Assembly (NCBI GenBank): GCA_035221665.1
Contig: CM069133.1
Span: 51,584,001 to 51,648,000, forward strand
Direction of reading: 5' to 3'
DNA length: 64,000 nt
Source of the DNA: Okamejei kenojei
Taxonomy: Eukaryota
Below are positions 10,511-61,484 of this stretch, piece by piece. Positions within the stretch are counted from its first letter, which is position 1. Each line of letters starts with the position of its first letter. The notes beneath the pieces are model-generated. The model was given only the letters and a program-made list of their open reading frames with translations, did no database searches and was not told the DNA's origin. Made by a program: the position numbers and the translations under genes.

Positions 10511-10964
10511 GTTCAGTTCAGAATACTGACACAAAGATTTAAACAAAATTCTGAAGGACATTACAGACTCGCTGTGACTGCTTCCATTAGTAACATGACA
10601 CCCATATTTTCTGAAGGAACATTAACTTCACAAAGAAGACATGAATGAAAAATAAATAGTTGATATCAAGGTCTTCAGCCTTTAGGAATATTAGCCTAAA
10701 TCTGCTGTTGTATACTTTCAGATAAATCATCCACTGCCATAGCTGGAAACTTTCTTCAATTCTGGCATTAATAGTCATAGCATGAACTCTGTGACAAACT
10801 GTGAGACTAGTTTTAATTGAAAGTTTCCAGAGATGCCCCTCTGACCCGCTGAATTGCTCCAGCACTTTGTGTCTTTTCTTCAATTCTGGCATTAATAGTC
10901 ATAGCATGAACTCTGTGACAAACTGTGAGACTAGTTTCAATTGAACAAGAACAGTCATTAACAA

Positions 10965-11185
10965 AAAAGACACAAAGTGCTGGAGTAATTCAGCGGGTCA
11001 GAGGGGCATCTCTGGAGAACATGGGTTGGTGATCTTTTGGGTCAGGAATCTTCTTCAGATTGAAGAAGGGCCCTGACCCAAAACATCACCTATCCATGTT
11101 CTCCAGTTGCTGCATGACCTGCTGAGTTACTATAGTAGTTTCTGCCTTTTTTTGTAAATCAGCATCTGCAGTTTCTTGTATCCAC
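10965..11185. mobile_element. palindromic PLE-terminal element
   Basis: Two inverted copies of the Penelope terminal sequence, centred on cttcttcag-a-ttgaagaag at 11059. Confidence 0.8.
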
Positions 11186-18694: not shown

Positions 18695-18900
18695 AGAGAC
18701 AGAGTGCCTGAGTAACTCAGCGGGTCAAGCAGCATGTCTGGAGAAAAGGATGTGTAATGTTTCGGGTCTTCTTTCTGAAGAAGGGTCCTGACCTGAAACA
18801 TCACTGATCCTTTTTCTCCCGAGATGCTACCTGACTCGTTTAGTTATTCCAGCACTTTGTGTCTACCTTCAATATAACCCAGCATATGAAGTTCCTTTCT
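18695..18900. mobile_element. palindromic PLE-terminal element
   Basis: Inverted arms gagtaactcagcgggtca... / ...gacctgaaacatcac...gttattccagcactttgtgtc around ctgaagaaggg at ~18775. Confidence 0.75.
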
Positions 18901-21544: not shown

Positions 21545-22910
21545 CTCAGAGTCGACTGATTACTGTAAATACGAGTCCCCTTGCTATTAGCCACAGGGAA
21601 AGTCAGCACAAAATCCCTCCTCAATTGCCTTTTCCCTAATGAATATTAAAGAGCTGAGTTTCTTATTAATGATTGGGATGAGAATGTACAAGGCGTGATT
21701 AAGTTTGCAGGTGTCACTAAAGAGGATGGTATCGCAGATAGTGAAGATAGTTATTAAATATTATGGGGGAATCTTGATCAGCTGGTGATGGTTAATGGAG
21801 TTTAATGCAGATAAGTGTGTGTTATTGCATTTTGGGAAGTCAAACCAGGGCAGGACCTTCACTGTGAATGTGGAACCCTGGGGACTGTTGTAGAGCAGAC
21901 GGATCACACACTACCCATTCTGCCTCCCAATCAAACACTTCCTTTTGTAGTGAGCTTGTGACTGCTACAGAAAGGCACTGCAGAATGTACAGAACTGGAG
22001 TGAAAGCACATCATCCTCAAACCCGACCAGCTGTCAAAGAAAAAGAATCAAGAGTGTTTAATTGTCATTCGTCATATGTGAAAACAGGACAATGAAATTC
22101 TTACTTGCAGCAGCATAATAGGTCTGTAACCACAATACTCATATCACAATAAACAAAAGAAAGTTCAATTAATTTTATAAAGACCTAATATTAGTGCAAA
22201 ACAAAAGCATAAAGTCCCTACTGCGACCAAGAGTCCCAATCGCAACCAACAGTTCGTAGTTTAATCGTTTTTTGTGTTCAAGAGCCTGATGGTTGCTGGG
22301 AAGAAGCAGTTCCTGAATCTGGCGGTTATAGCTTTCAGACTTCGACAATTTATTCTCCATAACGGGAGGGAAATGAGAGCATGGCTAAGGGGCTTGGTGA
22401 TACTAGCTGCCTTTTTGCGGCAATGCCTGATATAGATCCCTTTGATGATGAGGAGATCACGCGCGATAGTGGCAACACTGCAACAAACTAGAATGGAGAT
22501 GATTGATCACACCTATTAGGCATGCAAGATTGCCAAGCTAATGTGTACACAGCAGATTGATTTTGTGTAAATAACATCCACAACTGCAGTCAACTTTGTT
22601 TATCTGCAGAAAACACCAGGCTCTTATGAAGAGAAATTGCTGTATTTTGTTTCTTCTGCTTTCTGTGTAGACTCTATCTACCGAATAAACTGACTATATG
22701 GTTTTCAGTAGATTGCTGAGTCATATTCTGACTCAGAATATGGGAAATCTGACCTCATCCAAGTCTGCCTGATGGTTTTCTGAAAGATGAAATGAAATGT
22801 TACCTTTATTGTCATTCAGACCTTTCGGTCTGAACAAAATTTCGTGCCTGCAGTCATACATATAATAAAAATAACAAAAACACACAGTAAACACAAATTT
22901 CACATCCAGA

Positions 22911-23004
22911 GTTACACAAAAGGCTGGAGAAACTCAGCGGGTGCAGCAGCATCTAAGGAATGAAGGAGATAGGCGACGTTTCGGGTCGAGACCCTTCTTC
23001 AGAC
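22911..23004 (-). mobile_element. short PLE-terminal unit with hammerhead motif (94 bp)
   Basis: Near-identical to 60528-60622; intact motif at 22975-23002. Confidence 0.85.
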
Positions 23005-23485
23005 GGATGCTATTTAGAATCGCATTTCACATCCAGATGCTATTTAGAATCGCATTGTGCAACATTGAAACAGGTCCTCTAACTCACTGTGTTGATGCCA
23101 ACCATCATGCCTATTTATACTTAGTACATCAATCCCGCACCTACATCAATTCTATGTATTCTTTGCTGATTCAAGTACCTGTCTGGATGCCTCTTAAATG
23201 GCGTCACTATTCCTGCCTCTACCACCACCTCTGGCAGCTCAATCCAGATAGCAACTACTTTGTGAAAAACATATGCTATAAATCCTTTTTTAAACTGCCT
23301 CCCTCGCACCTAAAATGTATGCCCTATGATTTTAGACCTCTACCAAGGGAAACAGATTCAGCCTGTCTGTGCCTCTCGTAATTTTATATACCTCTATCAT
23401 ATCACCTCCACAGAAAATGGACCCAGCCTATCCAATTTCTCCTTAAAACTCAACTCCTCTGATCAAGGCAATATCATTGTGAATC

Positions 23486-23801: not shown

Positions 23802-26148
23802 TTGGAGACAGAAGAAACAATAGTTGCTGATTTGCCAAAAAGGACACAAGGTGCCAGAGTAACTCAGCCTATCAGGCAGCATTGTCCAGAGATGTTGCCT
23901 GACCTGTTGAGTTACTCCAGCACTTTGTGTCATCACTGTGAATCTTTTATACACCTTCTGGAGCTTACTCACACCTTTTCCGTGGCGTGGCGCAGAAATG
24001 CACACAATACTCGTTGAGTGACCTAGCCAATATATTCTACAACTGTAACCTGACATCTCAAATCCTGCCTGTACCTTCTAAACCATTCTGTCTGCCAGTA
24101 ATGCTACTTTCACTACCTATTGGTCTCTCTGTTTAACACCCATCTCCTGGGCCCTGCCATTCACTGTATATATCCTCACAACTTTAATTTCTCAAAATGC
24201 ACTTTGTATTGCTTGACTGCTAACTTGTTCTCTGGCATGTGTTGTCTGTCACCATTCTATTTATTCAGTCAACAGCAAGTGACAGCTGGAGTACATATTA
24301 GTCTAGGTGTGCCTTTAATGATTTATAAACCATTATCTTTCAGCTTTATAAATTAGTCGTTGAGCTGGCGTGTAGGTTAATTTGCCTCTGTAAAATGCTG
24401 CTAGTGCGTAGGGAGTGGATACGATACGATAAAACTTTACTCATCCCCGGAGGGAAATTGGTCTGCCAACAGTCTCAACACATAAAGTACACAAAAAACT
24501 TAAAATTAAAAGTGAAAACATAAAGAAAAAGACAAGCGACTGTTGTCCGGGTGCCGTGTGCACAGCGCCTTCACCGGAACAAATAAACAAACAACACAGA
24601 CTTATCCCCTGGGCAGAGGATTCTAAACGAGAGATGCAAAGGTAACAGAGAACAAGTGTGAATGAGTTATCGATGTTTGGCAAGGGCCTGTTTTCATGCC
24701 GTTTCTCTAAACTATACTACTCACATTTCTAGATGCATGTGTAGATATCCTTATAGAGGTGGATAAGATCATGAGAGGAATACATAGGTTAAATGCAGAG
24801 AGTCCTTTACCCAAATTAGGGGAATTAAGAACCAGAGGGCATAGGTTTAAGTTGAGGGTGTAAAGATTTAATAGGAACCTGAGGGATAACTGTTTTTACA
24901 CAAAGGGTGGTGGGTGGTTGGAACCAGCTGCCGGAGGAGGTAGTTGAGGTAGGTTCCATCACAAAATTAAAAAAAAATTGAACAGCTATATGAATAGGAT
25001 AGGTTTAGAGGGATATGGGCACGGGCACAGGCACAGGCACAGGCAGGTGGGATTAATGCATATGCAGCATGTTGGTCGGTGTGGTCAAGTTGGGACGAAG
25101 GCCCTGTTTCCACATTGTATAATACTATGAGATGATGTGGCTTCACATTATGGAAAATTGTAATATGGATCCCTGACTTGGAAATGCAAACACTACTACC
25201 CCCCCCCCCCCCCCCCCCCCCACCCACACATATAGTAGGGGTCACCTGTCTTCTTGAACACCCAGGTTGAGTTGTGCCAATTACAACCTCTTGCCCAACA
25301 CCAGTGATACCAAGGAACTAATAGTTGACTTCAGAAAGGGGAAGTTGTTAGACCACATGTCTGTTTTCATTGGGGGGTTGTTGGTGGAGAAAGCTAGCAG
25401 CTTTAAATTCCTGGGACCTGATGTATTGGATGATCTGTCACTGTAGGCTCACCAGCACATCTACTTCTTTAGAAGTTGGAAGAGGTTCAGCATATCAACA
25501 TAATTTCAACAGATATACTGGAGAATCATGAGCCTGGTAAGACAATTCATATATATTAGATGTTCTAAGGAGCAGTAGCCTTCAGGCACCTCCCAAGCTA
25601 TTTATTTTCCTTGGAGTGTGATAGAGTTTCCAGTCTAAGACCGCTTTGCATTAATCAGTTTCTGGATCAATCCAGAGAAATCACTTATGTTTTCTGTTTT
25701 CTAGTAGTAAAAAGGATTTGCTCATGACAATGCATCACAGGATTTCGAGAAATGTGAATGCACTGTGGTTCCTGTTCTGTAGGATACAGTTGTCTATGAA
25801 GCATTATCTAAGAAGAGTTTTTCTCGGGGCATCTTAAGACCTTTTACATTGATTTTCTCAAACAGATTTCTGTTATTACCCTTAGTTTGGGGTCAGGGTG
25901 ATGGAAAAATGCAGTGGATTAGACAGTAGTCGGAGATGTCCACACATTGTATGCTCAGATGACAACGCTGTCAAACAGGTGTCTGAGTTGGGTTGTTGCC
26001 ATCAGGGCTTGTACTTGTCTCTCTAATGAAACATTATCTGATCATACCTTATTCCAATCATTTTGTAAGAAGAGAAACTCTGTCAGAATTAGCTTTCCCT
26101 GCTCTCTCTTTGCCAGCCACACCTTTCGGGAGATGAATAGCCAGGAGG

Positions 26149-26252
26149 AACTGCAGATGCTGGAGAATCGAGAGTACACAAAAAGCTGGAGAAACTCAGC
26201 GGGTGCAGCAGCATCTAAGGAGCGAAGGAGATAGGCGACGTTTCGGGTCGAG
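26149..26252 (-). mobile_element. short PLE-terminal insertion with 28-bp target duplication
   Basis: Same young subfamily as 60528-60622, flanked by acctttcgggagatgaatagccaggagg at 26121-26148 and 26253-26280. Confidence 0.85.
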
Positions 26253-27849
26253 ACCTTTCGGGAGATGAATAGCCAGGAGGGAACTTCTAACATGCATATG
26301 ATAATAATGGGGTTGATCATTTCGAAGTCTAGACGACGAATTAGAGGAATTAAATAGCGTAATAATATACAAAGACAAGTCTCAGGGTTGTCAAGGTAGT
26401 TATTTTGAGGCTTTGCAATGAAGTGGTTCGATCATAAATTATTGCTTTTGATTCTGATAAATTGCGCACAGAAAAATACATATTTTACAGAAATGAAGGA
26501 ATCATCAAGTATGGAGAGAATGATCTGTTTGGAAAGATTTAAGAGACCTAAGCTTTATGGTCAGCAAAGAAGACAGTTAAAGTGGGGAAATACATTAAGG
26601 TAAAACCAATAAAATAGTAGGGTTAAAGTAAATTAAATATTGAAAAAAAACTAGCATTTATTGACTTTCTTAAACTGAGTGGGCTGCCTCTCATTTCAAA
26701 GATTAGCAAAAAGAAAAATACATGTATGTGGATCAAGAGTCACACATACACAGATTGAAGAACAGTGGCAGATTTACTTCCCTTGACCTTTCAAGGAGCG
26801 CGTGAAGAGCATTAGGGTGAATAAATCCACAAGACATGATGGAATTTATTTCAGGTTATTAAGAGAGGCAAGAGAGAAGTTTGCAAGAGCCTTGATGAAG
26901 ATCATTTTTATTTTAGCCAGAGGATGGTGGGTGTCCGGAACATGCCGCCGGGGGGGGGGGGTGATAGCAGATACAATAATGGTATTTAACAGGTTTTTAG
27001 ATAGGCACATAGATATCCAAGGAATGTTCATCACAATCATACAGAGGAGATTAATTCATCTTGGCATCATGTTCGACATGAACATTCTGGGCCTGTTCCT
27101 GTGCTGTCTTGCTCTATGTTCTTTGTACATGTGTCTTTAAAAATGACAATCACTGGAAAATCACTATTAATGATGTTCAGTTCCACATGTATTTAACTAT
27201 ATGAATGCAAACTCCCATTTGCCCTAGTTGGGTTAAAACCTTCTCCATGAAACCATTGGTCTAGGCCTGTAAAATATTCATTCTGTAATATCATAATAGA
27301 ATCTTATTTGCATTATATAAAATAAAGCCAAATTAATAGGATTAATGCACATTCAATTAAAATAGATACCAGAACATTAAAACAAAATGTTATATTTTTC
27401 CACAACGTAGTAAATATCCGGCAATAGCCAAGTAGCATGCAACTGACTGAATGTAGATACCTAAAATTTAAGGCCACAGATTGCAAAGACCCACGCTAAT
27501 TGAAGTGCTGGAGTAACTCAGCGGGTCAGACAGCATCCCCAGAGAAGATGGATAGGTGGTATTTCGAGTCAAGACACTTCTTCAGTCCCAACCCAAAAGG
27601 TCACCTATCCTGCCTGACCTGCTGAGCTTCTCCAGCACTTTGTGTCTTTTGTTTTTGTAAACCAGCAATTCCTTTTCCTGCATTCAGGGCTAATTGAATA
27701 TATCTTTCAAAGAGATGGCACAGGTAGAATGAAGTGTACAATCCAAAATGTTTTGTTTTATTGTGCTCATAATGTGATGTAACTATTGCTGCAAGGCCTA
27801 CGTTTATTGACAATTTCCAATCAGCAGTTAAACTGAGCTCATATTACTG

Positions 27850-28465: not shown

Positions 28466-29088
28466 TGGTGTCCATATACTCCACAGATATTGCCCAACCT
28501 GTTGAGCTACTCCAGCACTTTGTGTCTTATTTTGTAAACCAGCAATTGCAGTTCCTAGCTTCTGCAGGGGAAGGGGAAAGCCTGGCGTGTGATAGGTGGA
28601 CCAAAGGAGGAGGAGAGGAGAAATGGGTGCAAGTCCAGTTGGGGCACAAGAATAAGAGGACGGAAAAAAGAGGAAACAAGGGTTGTTTGTTGGTTAGATC
28701 GCTAAAATTGGAGAATGCAATCCTTATCTAACACCGTTTAGAGAGGTATATGGATAGGAAAGGTTTAGAGGCATATGAGCAGAATGCAAACAGGTGGGAC
28801 TAGTGTAGATGGGGCATGTTGGTCAATGTGGGCATATTTCCACGCTGTATGACTCTATGACTATGTGCTGTGAGGCTGCCATATACAAGCTTTTTATTGT
28901 ACTTGCGCAAGAAGGCACTGCAGATGTTGGTTTAAAACGAAGATCGGCGCAAAAAACTGGTGTAACTCAGCAGGACAAGCAGCAATCCTGGAGAGAAGGA
29001 ATGGAAAGATGCTGCTTGTCCCGCTGAGTTACTCCAGCTTTTTATGTCTATTTTCATTGTACCTGTACTTCACCCGACTTGTGCATAC

Positions 29089-46259: not shown

Positions 46260-46435
46260 CACACACACACAATGCTGGGGTAACTCACACACACACACAC
46301 ACACACAATGCTGGGGTAACTCACACACACACACAATGTTGGAGTAACTCACACACACACAATGCTGGAGTAACTCACACACACACACGAACAATGCTGG
46401 AGTAACTCTCGCACACACACAATTCTGGAGTAACT
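46260..46435. repeat. minisatellite: six units of (CA)n-ATGCTGG(G/A)GTAACT
   Basis: Directly visible; the last unit continues into a normal PLE terminal sequence. Confidence 0.9.
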
Positions 46436-46772
46436 CAGCGGGACAGCAGCATCTCCGGAGAGAAGGAATGATGATGTCTCGGGTCGAGACCCTTCCTTAG
46501 ACCACTACCCAGAGATGCTGCCTGTCCCGCTGAGTTACTCCAGCATTTCGTTTATCTTTAAACCAGCATCTGGACTTCCTTCCCACATAATAACCAATGA
46601 GATTCCCCACTAAACTTCCGTGTCCTCATTGTTCCCCTCTCTGTTTTCCCCAGACCTGTATATATTTATATGTGTATGTGTATATGTATATGTGTATGTG
46701 TATATATACTTTGCATGGTTCCTGGGTTGCCTACTGCTGGGTAACACCGCGAAATATCATCCCCCTGCATTT

Positions 46773-48817: not shown

Positions 48818-48998
48818 TAGATACAAAATGCTGGAGTAACTCAGCGGGACAGGCAGCATCTCTGGAGAGAAGGAATGGGTGATGTTTCGGGTCGAGACCC
48901 TTATTCAGACTGAAGGGTCTCAACCCGAAACGTCACCCATTCGTTCTCACCAGAGATGCTGCCTGTACCGCTGAGTTACTCCAGCAGTTCGTGGCTAC
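48818..48998. mobile_element. palindromic PLE-terminal element (best-preserved example)
   Basis: ~90-bp arms in inverted orientation, centred on ttcag-a-ctgaa at 48909. Confidence 0.9.
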
Positions 48999-53380: not shown

Positions 53381-54240
53381 TTGAAGATAGACAAAAATGC
53401 TGGAGAAACTCAGCGGGTGAGGTAGCATCTATGGAGCGAAGGAATAGGCGACGTATCGGGTCGAGACCCTTCTTCAGTCTGATGTTGGGGGGGCGGGGGG
53501 CAGGAAAAAGAAAGGTAGAGCCGGAGACAGTAGGCTGTGGGAGAGCTGGGAAGGGGAGGGAGGGAGAAAGCAAGGACTACCTGAAATTGGAGAAGTCAAT
53601 GTTCATACGGCTGGGGTATAAACTACCCAAGCGAAATATGAGGTGCTGCTCCTCCAATTTGCGGTGGGACTCACTCTGGCCATGGAGGAGGCCCAGGACA
53701 GAAAGATCGGATTCGGAATGGAAGGGGGAGTTGAAGTGCTGAGCCACCAGGAGATCAGGTTGGTTATTGCGAAATGAGCAGAGGTGTTGGGCGAAGTGAT
53801 CACCAAGCCCGCGAGTGGTCTCACCGATGTAGAGCAGTTGATACTTGGAACAGCAGATGCAATAGATGAGATTGGAGGAGGTGCAGGTGAACCTCTGCCT
53901 CACCTGGAAAGACTGCTTGGGTCCTTGGATGGAGTCGAGGGGGGAAGGTAAAGCTACAAGTGTAGCATTTCCTGCAGTTGCAAGAGAAAGTACCAGGGGA
54001 GGGGGTGGTTTGGGTGGGAAGGGACGAATTGACCAGGGAGTTACAGAGGGAACGGTCTCTGCGGAAAGCAGAAAGGGGAGGAGATGGGAAGATGTGGCCA
54101 GTGGTGCAATCCCGTTGGGGGTGACGAAAATGTCCGAGGATTATGTGTTGTATGCGACGGCTGGTAGGGTGGAAGGTGAGGACAAGGGGGACTCTGTCCT
54201 TGTTACGAGTGTGGGGATGGGGAGTGAGAGTGGAGCTAAG
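53381..54240 (-). mobile_element. Penelope-like element 3' part (GIY-YIG endonuclease and terminal repeat); continues at 56612-56840
   Basis: Encodes QRFTCTSSNLIYCICCSKYQLLYIGET...HFN...[14 protein letters not shown]. Colinear with 17563-17930 once the CR1 insert is removed. Confidence 0.92.
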
Positions 54241-56611
54241 TGGAGTGCAGTCAGAAACGGGTGAATTGATCATGGGGAACAAGGACATGGCAGACCAATT
54301 GAATAATTACTTTGGTTCTGTCTTCACTAAGGAAGACATAAATAATTTGCCGGAAATAGCAGGGGATCGCGGGTCAAATGAGATGGAGGAACTGAGTGAA
54401 ATCCAGGTTAGCCGGAAAGTGGTGTTAGGTAAATTGAATGGATTAAAGGCCGATAAATCCCCAGGGCCAGATAGGCTGCATCCCAGGGTACTTAAGGAAG
54501 TAGCCCCAGAAATAGCAGATGCCTTAGTGATAATTTTTCAAAACTCTTTAGATTCTGGAGTAGTTCCTGAGGATTGGAGGGTAGCTAATGTAACCCTACT
54601 TTTTAAAAAGGCAGGGAGAGAGAAAACGGGGAATTACAGACCAGTTAATCTAACATCGGTAGTGGGGAAACTGCTAGAGTCAGTTATTAAAGATGGGATA
54701 GCAGCGCATTTGGAAAGTGGTGAAATCATTGGATAAAGTCAGCATGGATTTACGAAGGATAAATCAAGTCTGACGAATCTTATTGAATTTTTTGAGGATG
54801 TAACTATTAGAGTGGATAAGGGAGAAGCAGTGGATGTGTTATATCTGGACTTTCAGAAGGCTTTCGACAAGGTCCCATACAAGAGATTGGTATACAAACT
54901 TAAAGCACACGGTATTGGTGGTTCAGTATTGATGTGGATAGAGAACTGGCTGGCAGACAGGAAGCAAAGAGTAGGAGTGAACGGGGGTTACACAAAAAGC
55001 TGGAGAAACTCAGCGGGTGCAGCAGCATTTAAGGAGCGAAGGAGATAGGCGACGTTTCGGGTCGAGACCCTTCTTCAGACTGGTCAGGCATCAGGGAAAC
55101 GAGAGATATAGACGGTGATGTGGAGAGATAAAGAACAATGAATGAAAGATATGCAAAAAAGTATCGATGATAAAGGGAACAAGCCATTGTAAGCTGTTTG
55201 TAGTGTGAAAATGAGAAGTTAGTGCGACTAGGGTGGGGGAGGGAGATAGAGATAGAGGGAATGCCAGGGCCCGAGGGCTGAGGGAGAGGTGGAAAGGGGA
55301 GGAGACAGCAAGGGTTAACAGAATTGAGAAAATTCAATGTTCAAGCCCAAGGGATGCAGACTCCCCAAGCGGAATATGAGGTGCTGTTCTTTCAACTTGC
55401 GGTGTTGCTCACTCTGGCCGTAGAGGAGGCCCAGGACCGAGAGGTCGGATACGGAATGGGAGGGGGAGTTGAAGTGCTGAGCCACCGGGAGGTCGGGTTG
55501 GTTTTTGCGGACCGAGCGGAGGTGTTCGGCAAAACGATCGCCAAGCCTCCGCTTGGAGTGAACGGGTCCTTTTCAGGATGGCAGGCAGTGATTAGTGGGG
55601 TGCCGCAAGGCTCAGTTCTGGGATCCCAGATATTTACAATATACATTAATGATTTGGACGAGGGAATTAAATGCAACATCTCGAAGTTTGCGGATGACAC
55701 AAAGCTGGGGGGCAGTGTTAGCTGTGAGGAGGATGCTAGGAGGCTGCAGGATGACTTGGATAGACTGGGCAAATGCATGGCGGATGCAGTATAATGTGGA
55801 TAAATGTGAGGTTATCCACTTTGGTGGCAAAAACAGGAAGGTAGACTATTATTTGAATGGTAAATTAGGAAAAGGGGAGATGCAGCGAGACCTGGGTGTC
55901 ATGGTACACCAGTCATTGAAAGTTGGCAAGCAGGTGCAGCAGGCTGTGAAGAAAGCGAATGGTATGTTGGCATTCATAGCAAAAGGATTTGAGTACAAAT
56001 GCAGGGAGGTTCTACTGCAGTTGTACAGGGTCTTGGTGAGGCCACACCTGGAGTATTGCGCACAGTTTTGGTCTCCTAATATGAGGAAAGACATTCTTGC
56101 CATAGAGGGAGTACAGAGAAGGTTCACCAGACTGATTCCTGGGATGACACAACTTCCATATGAAGAAAGACTGGATAGACTCGGCTTGTACTCGCTGGAA
56201 TTTAGAAGATTGAGGGGTGATCTCATTGAGACTTACAAAATTCTTAAGGGGTTGGACAGGCAAGATGCAGGAAGATTGTTCCCGATGTTGGTCCAGGACA
56301 AGGGGTCACAGTTTAAGGATAAGGGAGAAGTCTTTTAGGACCGAGATGAGAAAATCGTTTTTCACACAGAGAGTGGTGAATCTGTGGAATTCTCTGCCAC
56401 AGAAGGTAGTTGAGGCCAGTTCGTTGGCCATATTTAAGAGGGAGTTAGATGTGGCCCTTGTGGCTGAAGGGATCACATCTGAAGAGGTATGGAGAGAAGG
56501 CAGGTACAGGATACTGAGTTGGATGATCAGCCATGATCATATTGAATGGCGATGCTGGCTCGAAGGGCCGAATGGCCTGCTCCTGCACCTAGTTTCTATG
56601 TTTCTTTGTTT
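54241..56611 (+). mobile_element. CR1 LINE inserted into the Penelope element
   Basis: Motifs [29 protein letters not shown] and FADD; (GTTTCTAT)-like tail; CTAAG duplicated at 54236-54240 and 56612-56616. Confidence 0.93.
54986..55554 (-). mobile_element. young Penelope-like 3' fragment inserted into the CR1
   Basis: 12-bp TSD ggagtgaacggg (54974-54985 and 55555-55566), endonuclease remnant, and an intact hammerhead motif at 55051-55078. Confidence 0.92.
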
Positions 56612-60110: not shown

Positions 60111-60527
60111 ATGGACTGTCAGTTGCGACATTATGTCAAGTGGCTCATAGCAAATGGAGTTACACAAAGGTAAAACCATGTAATGGCAGCAGGTTTCAAA
60201 AAGCAAGGAGAATTCGCTTTATTTTAAGTATTCAACAACTTCATTATTACTTATGCTGACGCCGATATTTTATCGCCACATCTTGTTGAGAAGCCAAATT
60301 TCTCCCAACTCTCAAACCCTAATTCTAAGTTACTAACTTTGTAACATGGCTGCCCTTTGTACTATTGTTATGTGCACTCCACTCCTCTTCACTAATTTGT
60401 GTCTTGTAGAGAAGGGCAAAACTTTCTCCTGATTTCTGTAATCCATGGAGGAATATATAACATAATTTATCATTCATAATTTAGATTCATCTTAAAATAG
60501 ACCCAAAGGTGGCAATTTGATATTGGT

Positions 60528-60622
60528 GGTTACACAAAAAGCTGGAGAAACTCAGCGGGTGCAGCAGCATCTAAGGAGCGAAGGAGATAGGCGACGTTTC
60601 GGGTCGAGACCCTTCTTCAGAC
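60528..60622 (-). mobile_element. short PLE-terminal unit with hammerhead motif (95 bp), 16-bp TSD
   Basis: Flanked by gcaatttgatattggt at 60512-60527 and 60623-60638. Confidence 0.92.
60593..60620 (-). ncRNA. minimal type I hammerhead ribozyme motif (identical copies at 22975-23002, 35409-35436, 55051-55078)
   Basis: CUGAAGA-A-GGGU(CUCG)ACCC-GAAA-CG-UC: conserved core boxes, a 4-5 bp stem II and a palindromic ACGU stem III like the dimer-active PLE hammerheads. Stem I is only ~2 bp, so activity is unproven. Confidence 0.7.
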
Positions 60623-61484
60623 GCAATTTGATATTGGTACTGGTTTATTATTGTCACATGCACCGAGGTACAGTGAGAAGCTTTGTTTGCATGCTATCTA
60701 ATAAACTAATACTATAGATGAGTACAATCAAACCATACACAAATGTAACAGGTAATTCTGAGAAAAATATCAACGTGCAGAATAAAGTGTTACAGCATTT
60801 TAGCACGACAGTTAGAGAAAAGGTGCAGGGTCTGCAATTAGGTAGGTTGGAAAATCGGGACCACACCCTAGTTTATGGACGAACTGTTCGGTAATCTGAT
60901 CGTAATGTGGAAGAACCAGTTACCAAATCTGGTTTCAATTTCGTATTGCAGTTGCTCCAAGGATTGTTAAGATAGTTAAGAGTAACAAGTTTTCCATTAA
61001 ATGGCATAAACCGCAACTGTAATTTGTATTTAAATACTACCTTTACTATTGTACATAGGTGTTTTGCAAAAGTGTAACAAATCAATATTTCTATTCTGAA
61101 TCATGAGAAGATTTTGGAAAGACAGTGGATAGATATACAGGCAATGGAGGGATATTGCTTATTTGTAGGCAGATAAAGGTTTGTCTTGGCACCATATTCG
61201 GCCTATTCCTGTACTGTTCTACGTTCTATTTCTAGATGTCAATTTAATCTGTTATTAATTAAATGAAGATTTTGCTGATGATACAAAGATGGGTGGAAAA
61301 TTAAATGGTGAAAGGACACAAAATTAGAGCAGGCTATGGATTAATTGGGAAAGCAGAATGAGTGCCAGATAGACTATGGAGTGATGCATTTTGGGGAGTT
61401 AAATCAGGTCCGGGAATACACAACAAAATATAGGGCCCCAAAGAATGCTATTAAACAGAGGTACAAATACATGATACCCATAAA

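Follow-up and report, generated by a model that had tools for sequence, protein, structure and literature searches.

In the skate Okamejei kenojei a Penelope-like element (PLE) has tens of thousands of young copies, about half of which are stubs of 95 or 131 bases that begin at the edge of the element's hammerhead ribozyme. This insertion pattern is a real, non-random feature and constitutes a new variant within a known kind of PLE. Judging from the sequences, we favour with moderate confidence the explanation that reverse transcriptase (RT) primes internally and runs off the probably capped 5' end of the element RNA (-96 to -91), the resulting strong-stop-like cDNA being inserted. The stubs thus likely start at the ribozyme edge because copying starts inside the RNA and runs off its capped front end. 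The analysis departs from a stretch of 64,000 nucleotides of contig CM069133.1, hereafter the window. Positions within the element count back from its tail-less 3' end, with the unit start at -95, the start of the CUGAAGA core at -93 and the predicted scissile bond at -66/-65.

The element and its hammerhead

The element is a PLE of ~3.99 kb with RT and GIY-YIG domains. Two partial tandems (L121, L122) have a period of ~3,986 nt and show the order 95-mer, tail of ~36 nt, ~35 further bases, first ATG. Since the 95-mer precedes tail and ORF in these loci, the stub corresponds both to the front of the 5'UTR and to the end of the 3' pLTR. An initial annotation of the window had proposed a PLE RT/GIY-YIG protein as mobiliser, a proposal that is supported. 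In L038 a single frame contains RT motifs, a linker Zn-finger-like motif and a C-terminal endonuclease with LIYC-x2-C-x2-C-x3-YIG, hence one ORF with two cysteines between GIY and YIG as in EN+ PLEs. Pfam RVT_1 matches the element ORF at E 2.4e-6, under the gathering score. Homologs of L038, the nearest of those with a name belonging to sharks and rays, carry PF00078 and PF26215 and partly PF01541; Pfam gave no GIY-YIG match for the element copies studied here, including three frames of L328 and a 79-aa piece from the window. RT with C-terminal GIY-YIG, pLTR partial tandems, inverted 5' copies and an optional tail of 30-40 bp are all shared with the canonical EN+ PLEs with minimal hammerheads, as far as these are described in the accessible text of Cervera and De la Pena (2014, PMC4209133) and Craig et al. 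(2021, PMC8557442). In sample A (see below) 14 of 44 short copies are inverted; 15 of the 44 carry the tail, as do 15 of 34 long copies. Copies finish either at the tail-less site or at the tail end, ~36 nt further on; both 3' ends are already known for PLEs and agree with the two internal RT start sites that the anole PLE uses in vitro (PMC11167929). Upstream of its EN domain L038 has a C-x4-C-x2-C linker motif, which characterizes the Neptune clade and is also found in Nematis (PMC8557442); judged by this motif, the element likely belongs to Neptune.

Table 1. Features of the window (. = strand not applicable; TSD = target site duplication)
Feature	Position	Strand	Remarks
95-nt PLE stub	60528..60622	minus	From hotspot (-95) to tail-less 3' end; front of element 5'UTR
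TSD of 95-nt stub, 16 bp	60512..60527	.	Element's 3' side; matches 60623-60638 exactly
TSD of 95-nt stub, other copy	60623..60638	.	Abuts element 5' end
Minimal type I hammerhead	60591..60622	minus	Sequence read against the minimal hammerhead description in the accessible text of PMC4209133
Hammerhead stem I, 2 bp	60622-60621 with 60592-60591	minus	From sequence
Hammerhead CUGAAGA core	60620-60614	minus	Followed by unpaired A 60613
Hammerhead stem II	60612-60601	minus	Followed by GAA 60600-60598
Hammerhead palindromic ACGU (stem III)	60597-60594	minus	Predicted scissile bond 60593/60592
Second stub, 94 nt	22911..23004	minus	96.8% identity to 95-mer; 5' base shared, 3' end one base shorter
TSD of second stub, 14 bp	22897..22910	.	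Other copy 23024-23037
Filler, 19 nt, between second stub's 5' junction and TSD	23005..23023	.	18 nt are a re-copy of neighbouring host DNA
5'-truncated PLE copy, 569 nt	54986..55554	minus	GIY-YIG end (55554-55315), 3'UTR, hammerhead
TSD of 569-nt copy, 12 bp	54974-54985 and 55555-55566	.	Direct-repeat match
Fourth young stub	26146..26259	minus	Start near -88; most of PLE tail present; 3' limit approximate
Longer sister-subfamily copy, GAUA core variant	53388..53809	minus	5' limit at or beyond 53809
Head-to-head pair, older subfamily	48823..48993	.	Joint at same hammerhead edge

The insertions on which the initial annotation was built are borne out (Table 1): the 95-nt minus-strand unit lies between perfect 16-bp repeats, the second stub shares its 5' end and, but for one base, its 3' end, and the long copy has its 12-bp TSD and the common 3' end. 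Of the proposed unit boundaries the shared start holds, but the 5' end is a cluster of ~15 nt rather than one base and a second 3' end lies ~36 nt further on. The 95-nt stub is 98.9% identical to the final 95 nt of the long copy, which codes for the C-terminal 79 aa of the GIY-YIG endonuclease. A natural GAAA>GAUA variant noted earlier (53450-53477) is genuine, with the qualification that it reflects a point mutation and that the copy bearing it is longer and belongs to a sister subfamily. The host-derived filler of the second stub is a detail that the initial annotation had missed. BLAST of the 95-mer yields 38 matches in the window (E<=0.01), four of which are young (>=96.8% identity), and many of the older ones likewise start close to the hammerhead edge or exactly there. 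The PLE end is also found as older inverted pairs at 10827-11129, 18710-18862, 27507-27645, 28950-29047 and 46415-46554, some inverted pairs giving false Rfam matches to miRNA precursors. The long copy splits the RT-coding region of another, putatively CR1-like retroelement (window 54800-55700).

The hammerhead has the CUGANGA and GAAA cores, stem II with the preceding unpaired base, the palindromic 15.1-16.1 segment and the NUH site of minimal hammerheads. All core bases are present, which agrees with its earlier identification as a minimal PLE hammerhead with palindromic stem III (ACGU). A long stem II, the unpaired base before it and the palindromic stem III are common to the hammerheads of canonical EN+ PLEs; stem I is only 2 bp instead of the 4-5 bp of most, as in the D. 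virilis variant (accessible text of PMC4209133). It pairs GU with GC in young families and GU with AC in older ones, and the same core haplotype leads all five sequence groups. An Rfam scan of the window (E<=1) returned no hammerhead and 11 weak miRNA or plastid matches on inverted repeats. Dimer cleavage of PLE hammerheads was reportedly described by Luense et al. in 2017; for the skate sequence the active dimer arrangement is predicted at -6.3 kcal/mol against -19.7 kcal/mol for the minimum-energy fold of the dimer. Both tail variants can in predicted folds pair with the first core strand (L005:1465-1595, minus), which would hold the ribozyme off. These predictions fit a ribozyme that is mostly silent and perhaps protein-assisted, as reported for the anole element.

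A hotspot of 5' ends at the hammerhead edge

Two samples and a set of genome-wide counts were used. Sample A comprises 98 distinct copies and was drawn from the first 100 listed among 7,565 exact matches to the 3' 31-mer; sample B covers 60 stretches of contig C1 with 65 copies anchored on the core and, since it excludes loci fetched earlier including that region's -95/-96 starts, understates the peak. Genome-wide numbers were obtained with exact sequence patterns. In sample A, 45 of the 81 copies that reach -85 stop in -85..-100, where the rate of truncation further upstream predicts 3.0% (p 2e-46). In sample B 29 of 65 stop by -100, where 2.6% is expected (p 9e-29). Truncation amounts to 0.035/nt in -85..-100 versus 0.0017/nt in -101..-116, a twentyfold fall. 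The 5' ends form a cluster of ~15 nt that peaks at -95/-96 and has a minor mode at -91. Genome-wide, 31,564 exact matches to the core 30-mer were found, 13,052 of which also keep the 16 native upstream bases; by arithmetic that allows ~1% divergence per base, about half of the copies, ~16,000, stop within those 16 bases and about half read through the hotspot. Exact starts number 3,735 at -95, 3,580 at -96 and 852 at -92, counts based on patterns that differ by 1-4 bases at the 3' side and slightly in subfamily reach, and that include point mutants of longer copies. The genome-wide breakpoints thus peak at the hammerhead edge rather than being uniform, and the initial argument that random truncation cannot explain the repeated stop at the ribozyme edge is upheld. 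TSDs measure 9-18 bp with a mode of 14 (334 copies, of which 66 passed a strict test and were used; the floor of 9 was set by us).

Copies that reach the ORF, 653 genome-wide, show the same behaviour: 9 of 21 reaching -85 stop at the hotspot. Near-full-length L293 starts with a G followed by -96 and spans at least 3.8 kb, L291 starts at -89 and extends to the 3' end, and L292 starts at -91, continues for 2 kb and is followed by a second unit from -91, all within a 13-bp TSD. Six full units (L121, L122, L302, L311, L320, L328) have longer 5' pLTRs. Secondary 5' clusters near -350 and -570 were considered, with 8/30 and 8/18 of the copies at risk in sample A and 2/27 and 3/21 in sample B; as they are weaker in sample B, no claim is made for them. 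The long copy of the window starts at -569, beside a 6-bp hairpin.

Thousands of copies sharing two start bases could point to an independent non-autonomous mini-element, SINE-like or a mini-retrozyme, with its own promoter and priming site and amplified from short masters; the initial annotation had proposed such a distinct, ribozyme-defined unit. Some short copies could indeed be re-mobilised, as the priming site, and perhaps downstream promoter elements too, lie within the stub. We nevertheless consider an independent mini-element quite improbable. No column separates 182 short from 112 long copies (lowest p 0.14; loci picked by 3' pattern excluded), and the two sets are equally diverged, with 0.78 and 0.65 mismatches per 70 nt, respectively; the comparison covers ~1% of copies and has limited power. 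Among the copies of sample A without indels (seven were passed over), 40 short and 31 long ones share the two tail variants as well as a rarer swap of two bases. The 5' ends are ragged, the multi-kilobase copies L293, L291 and L292 start at the same hotspot, and the cleavage site lies inside the unit without any cleavage-to-cleavage repeat unit. The amplified short groups that were seen, at many places, have identical flanks and are therefore passengers in two larger repeats whose amplification came later (L185, L187, L191, L199 and L200 in one, L172, L175 and L177 in another).

Metazoan non-LTR retrozymes, according to the accessible text of PMC7229834 and bioRxiv 10.64898/2026.07.22.740005, resemble the stubs in being non-coding, in their type I hammerhead, in their origin from PLE pLTRs and in their long TSDs. 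They are, however, tandem repeats with a hammerhead in each repeat that are cut to cleavage-to-cleavage monomers and circles. The skate stubs are dispersed, with inversions and composites, start away from the cleavage site, form no lineage apart from the autonomous element and are shorter than the 170-400 nt of retrozyme RNAs (PMC7229834). Tandem units of ~64 nt that run from the cleavage position and lack the ribozyme core occur at L401-L404 (contig C2 near 137.65 Mb); this array is the closest thing to a cleavage-bounded repeat that was observed.

Junction evidence on the origin of the 5' end

Hotspot junctions carry, in modest excess, an untemplated G directly before the element start. Among resolved junctions the count is 13 of 48 at -95/-96 but 7 of 86 for long copies (p 0.005), and it is 5 of 20 for starts at -97..-101; in a set chosen for G at -96, 12 of 15 resolved Gs are untemplated. 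Compared with the -85..-93 class the p value is 0.07. A cap-derived extra G is known from full-length L1 and SVA insertions (PMC2912911, accessible text). Since an untemplated C can be added at any template end, the G marks a template end and is no proof of a cap. Furthermore, 39 rows among 61 ORF-junction copies are composite, with element sequence on both sides of the joint and a second segment that ends 40-224 nt past the tail (two rows being repeated arrays), and 14 of these 39 joints lie at the hotspot. By script, the junction G occurs in 6 of 13 hotspot and 1 of 22 other composites (p 0.006); as the script misread L308, L211 and L230 and omitted L295, L298 and L346, we give the count by eye alongside, which is 8 of 14 versus 1 of 25. 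The second segments (L201-L230, L294-L330) at times end in a short A-run (L221, L299, L308, L319), and their ends suggest many short or prematurely ended element RNAs.

Microhomology was found in all nine TSD-resolved copies starting at -85..-93 versus 9 of 33 starting at -94..-101 (p 1e-4). This suggests that the cDNA ended near -96 and was sometimes trimmed, and the same ordering has been described for truncated versus full-length L1 (PMC2912911, accessible text). The modes -96 and -91 are both pyrimidine-purine steps, the usual start pattern of Pol II.

Other counts go against run-off at a capped end, as do the read-through of about half of the copies and the longer 5' pLTRs of six full units. 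Genome-wide, G at -96 is found in only 1,271 of 3,580 starts (35.5%), and the first 100 of the -96 starts have 36 Gs versus 30% expected from flank composition (p 0.23). In the strict-TSD subset the extra G shows no difference (6/33 versus 3/22 in long copies), and long copies are also poor in microhomology (8/22), unlike truncated L1. A promoter within the pLTR has been described for D. virilis Penelope (PMC2377424), which nonetheless provides a counter-case, since its start site is upstream of the hammerhead and separated from it by ~120 nt and an intron (accessible text of PMC4209133 and PMC2377424). Two candidate signals were discarded: a preference for C before -95, seen in the first nine copies, was gone at n=100 (G 47, T 29, C 24), and a GWYV downstream-promoter-like motif at +29..+32 from -96 overlaps the ribozyme GUC and is therefore not independent promoter evidence.

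A stop imposed by sequence or structure on a longer RNA, already named as a possibility in the initial annotation, stays a rival, unlikely though not far-fetched. RT would pause at the upstream edge of the hammerhead and the cDNA be joined there, or two cDNAs would anneal via the near-palindrome at -97..-91. The 14 inverted short copies of sample A are head-to-head arms, several of them centred on this near-palindrome, the stopping share in ORF-reaching copies is similar, and the predicted pairing of tail and core would place a folded domain from ~-92 to the tail end. The majority of short copies is, however, not inverted, a structural halt is predicted at the 3' foot of a helix rather than beyond the helix, and the supporting fold is weak (z -1.85; 9 of 200 shuffles equally good). 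A stop also provides no reason why the untemplated G should be limited to hotspot junctions; a genuine RNA 5' end accounts better for the G and for the end-to-end jumps. Head-to-head insertions usually combine one tailed and one tail-less arm in one TSD of 13-17 bp (L007/L008, L014/L015, L040, L057, L066, L069, L073, L266; also 48823-48993 in the window), which is what priming of the two target strands at different RNA sites would give.

A real RNA 5' end might also result from processing, by the use of a 3' splice-site-like sequence or by 5'-to-3' exonuclease trimming to a protein-protected fold. A pyrimidine tract with CAG just before -94 is found upstream of the hammerhead in several subfamilies, and in D. 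virilis the 3' boundary of the intron coincides exactly with the start of helix I (PMC4209133, accessible text). We regard processing as distinctly unlikely: a search through plain junctions (10 at -94, 24 at -95) gave no common spliced upstream exon, the sole inspected internal deletion that ends at -95 (L090) lacks a GT donor, and the -96/-95 modes include bases that would be intronic.

That self-cleavage of the hammerhead sets the 5' end of the unit has a negligible chance of being right, and cleavage at the canonical site is refuted as its origin, since the unit starts 30 nt upstream of the bond, which thus lies inside the 95-mer. Starts at -65 do outnumber those at the nearby control -69 (188 versus 60; corrected, ~430 versus ~170), but flank-mismatch arithmetic gives ~5,000 starts at each of -95 and -96, so that those at -65 are about tenfold rarer. 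Upon inspection of 50 of the 188 loci (30 in order and 20 chosen for A-ending flanks), several of the -65 starts appeared to be palindromic inversion joints, tandem repeats or 1-nt deletions.

The inspected loci do contain what seems to be a trace of cleavage. Five copies (L419 on contig C1, L407 on C3, L408 on C4, L390 on C2 and L409 on C5) consist of the ribozyme 5' half up to the scissile bond, A-rich inserts of 1, 3, 13, 33 and 33 bases, and then the 3' half, and in L339 and L325 a segment that ends at the scissile bond is joined to a hotspot start. A-runs of at least 3 were not found at the other 65 bonds in ~320-470 intact copies per bond (not deduplicated). As this control is asymmetric, with only the scissile bond searched genome-wide, a record of cleavage is likely but not proven; by their sequence the inserts are likely fossils of in vivo cleavage, oligoadenylation and an RT jump.

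Proposed insertion route and its implications

Combined with run-off at a capped end, these observations would fit the following course. Transcription would start in the pLTR at the pyrimidine-purine steps around -96 and -91, which would put the hammerhead within the first 32 nt of the RNA. The GIY-YIG domain would make a staggered cut ~14 bp apart, and RT would prime inside the RNA at either of two sites, which lie 95 and ~131 nt from the cap, reach the cap and often add one C, seen as the extra G. The strong-stop-like cDNA could then be joined to the target directly, be trimmed back a few bases to a microhomology, anneal to a second cDNA from the other target strand to yield a head-to-head pair, or be lengthened when RT jumps to the 3' end of a further element RNA. 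For long copies the source would be priming at the 3' pLTR, or else tandem read-through RNA. Only a minor fraction of the templates that are used is likely cut by the ribozyme.

The closest experimental parallel is Poseidon PAc from Anolis (Frangieh et al. 2024, PMC11167929), for which the accessible text describes in vitro two internal RT start sites separated by the tail, priming on both target strands and uncut RNA as the main substrate. Its hammerhead overlaps the ORF start, whereas here it lies ~140 nt before the first ATG. The main text maps no 5' hotspot and has no reads ending at the cleavage site, whereas in the skate a few genomic copies mark the bond. Truncation of canonical EN+ PLEs is described as variable, whereas about half of the skate copies stop within 16 nt at the hammerhead edge; most PLE hammerhead motifs occur singly and have been read as truncated PLEs (PMC4209133, accessible text). 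Minimal hammerheads in PLE pLTRs, tails, inversions, internal priming and PLE-derived retrozymes are thus already known (PMC4209133, PMC8557442, PMC11167929, PMC7229834, as far as accessible). A literature search, with subscription journals and Repbase outside its reach, found no published 5' hotspot at the hammerhead edge, strong-stop-like PLE product or scissile-bond insert.

In LTR retroelements minus-strand strong-stop DNA is primed near the RNA 5' end, runs off at the cap and jumps to the RNA 3' end. The skate product would differ in being primed by nicked target DNA instead of tRNA, in jumping end-to-end with 0-5 nt of overlap or filler instead of via an R repeat, and in that the short product is itself integrated.

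The most far-reaching version of this proposal, in which strong-stop cDNA is a regular first step, the ~16,000 stubs represent first steps that were aborted, marking the start site, and the rare A-runs prove in vivo cutting, is possible, and we hold it tentatively. If true, 5'UTR priming, run-off at the cap and an end-to-end jump could rebuild pLTRs without a tandem master, a regeneration for which the Discussion of PMC2377424 sees no obvious mechanism. The stubs would map the element's start site at base resolution. The A-runs would be genomic proof of in vivo cutting by an animal minimal hammerhead with a 2-bp stem I, and the 5' cleavage product would be oligoadenylated and copied. The findings bear on how PLE insertions are completed, how pLTRs are regenerated and whether hammerheads cut in vivo. 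Tens of thousands of young insertions, diverged by ~1%, preserve in their junctions the start site, the priming sites, template jumps and rare cleavage events, so that these questions can be tested by counting in one genome and with one in vitro system. The findings also carry a warning, as run-off products of PLEs may be hidden among the short hammerhead repeats that have been labelled SINEs or retrozyme monomers.
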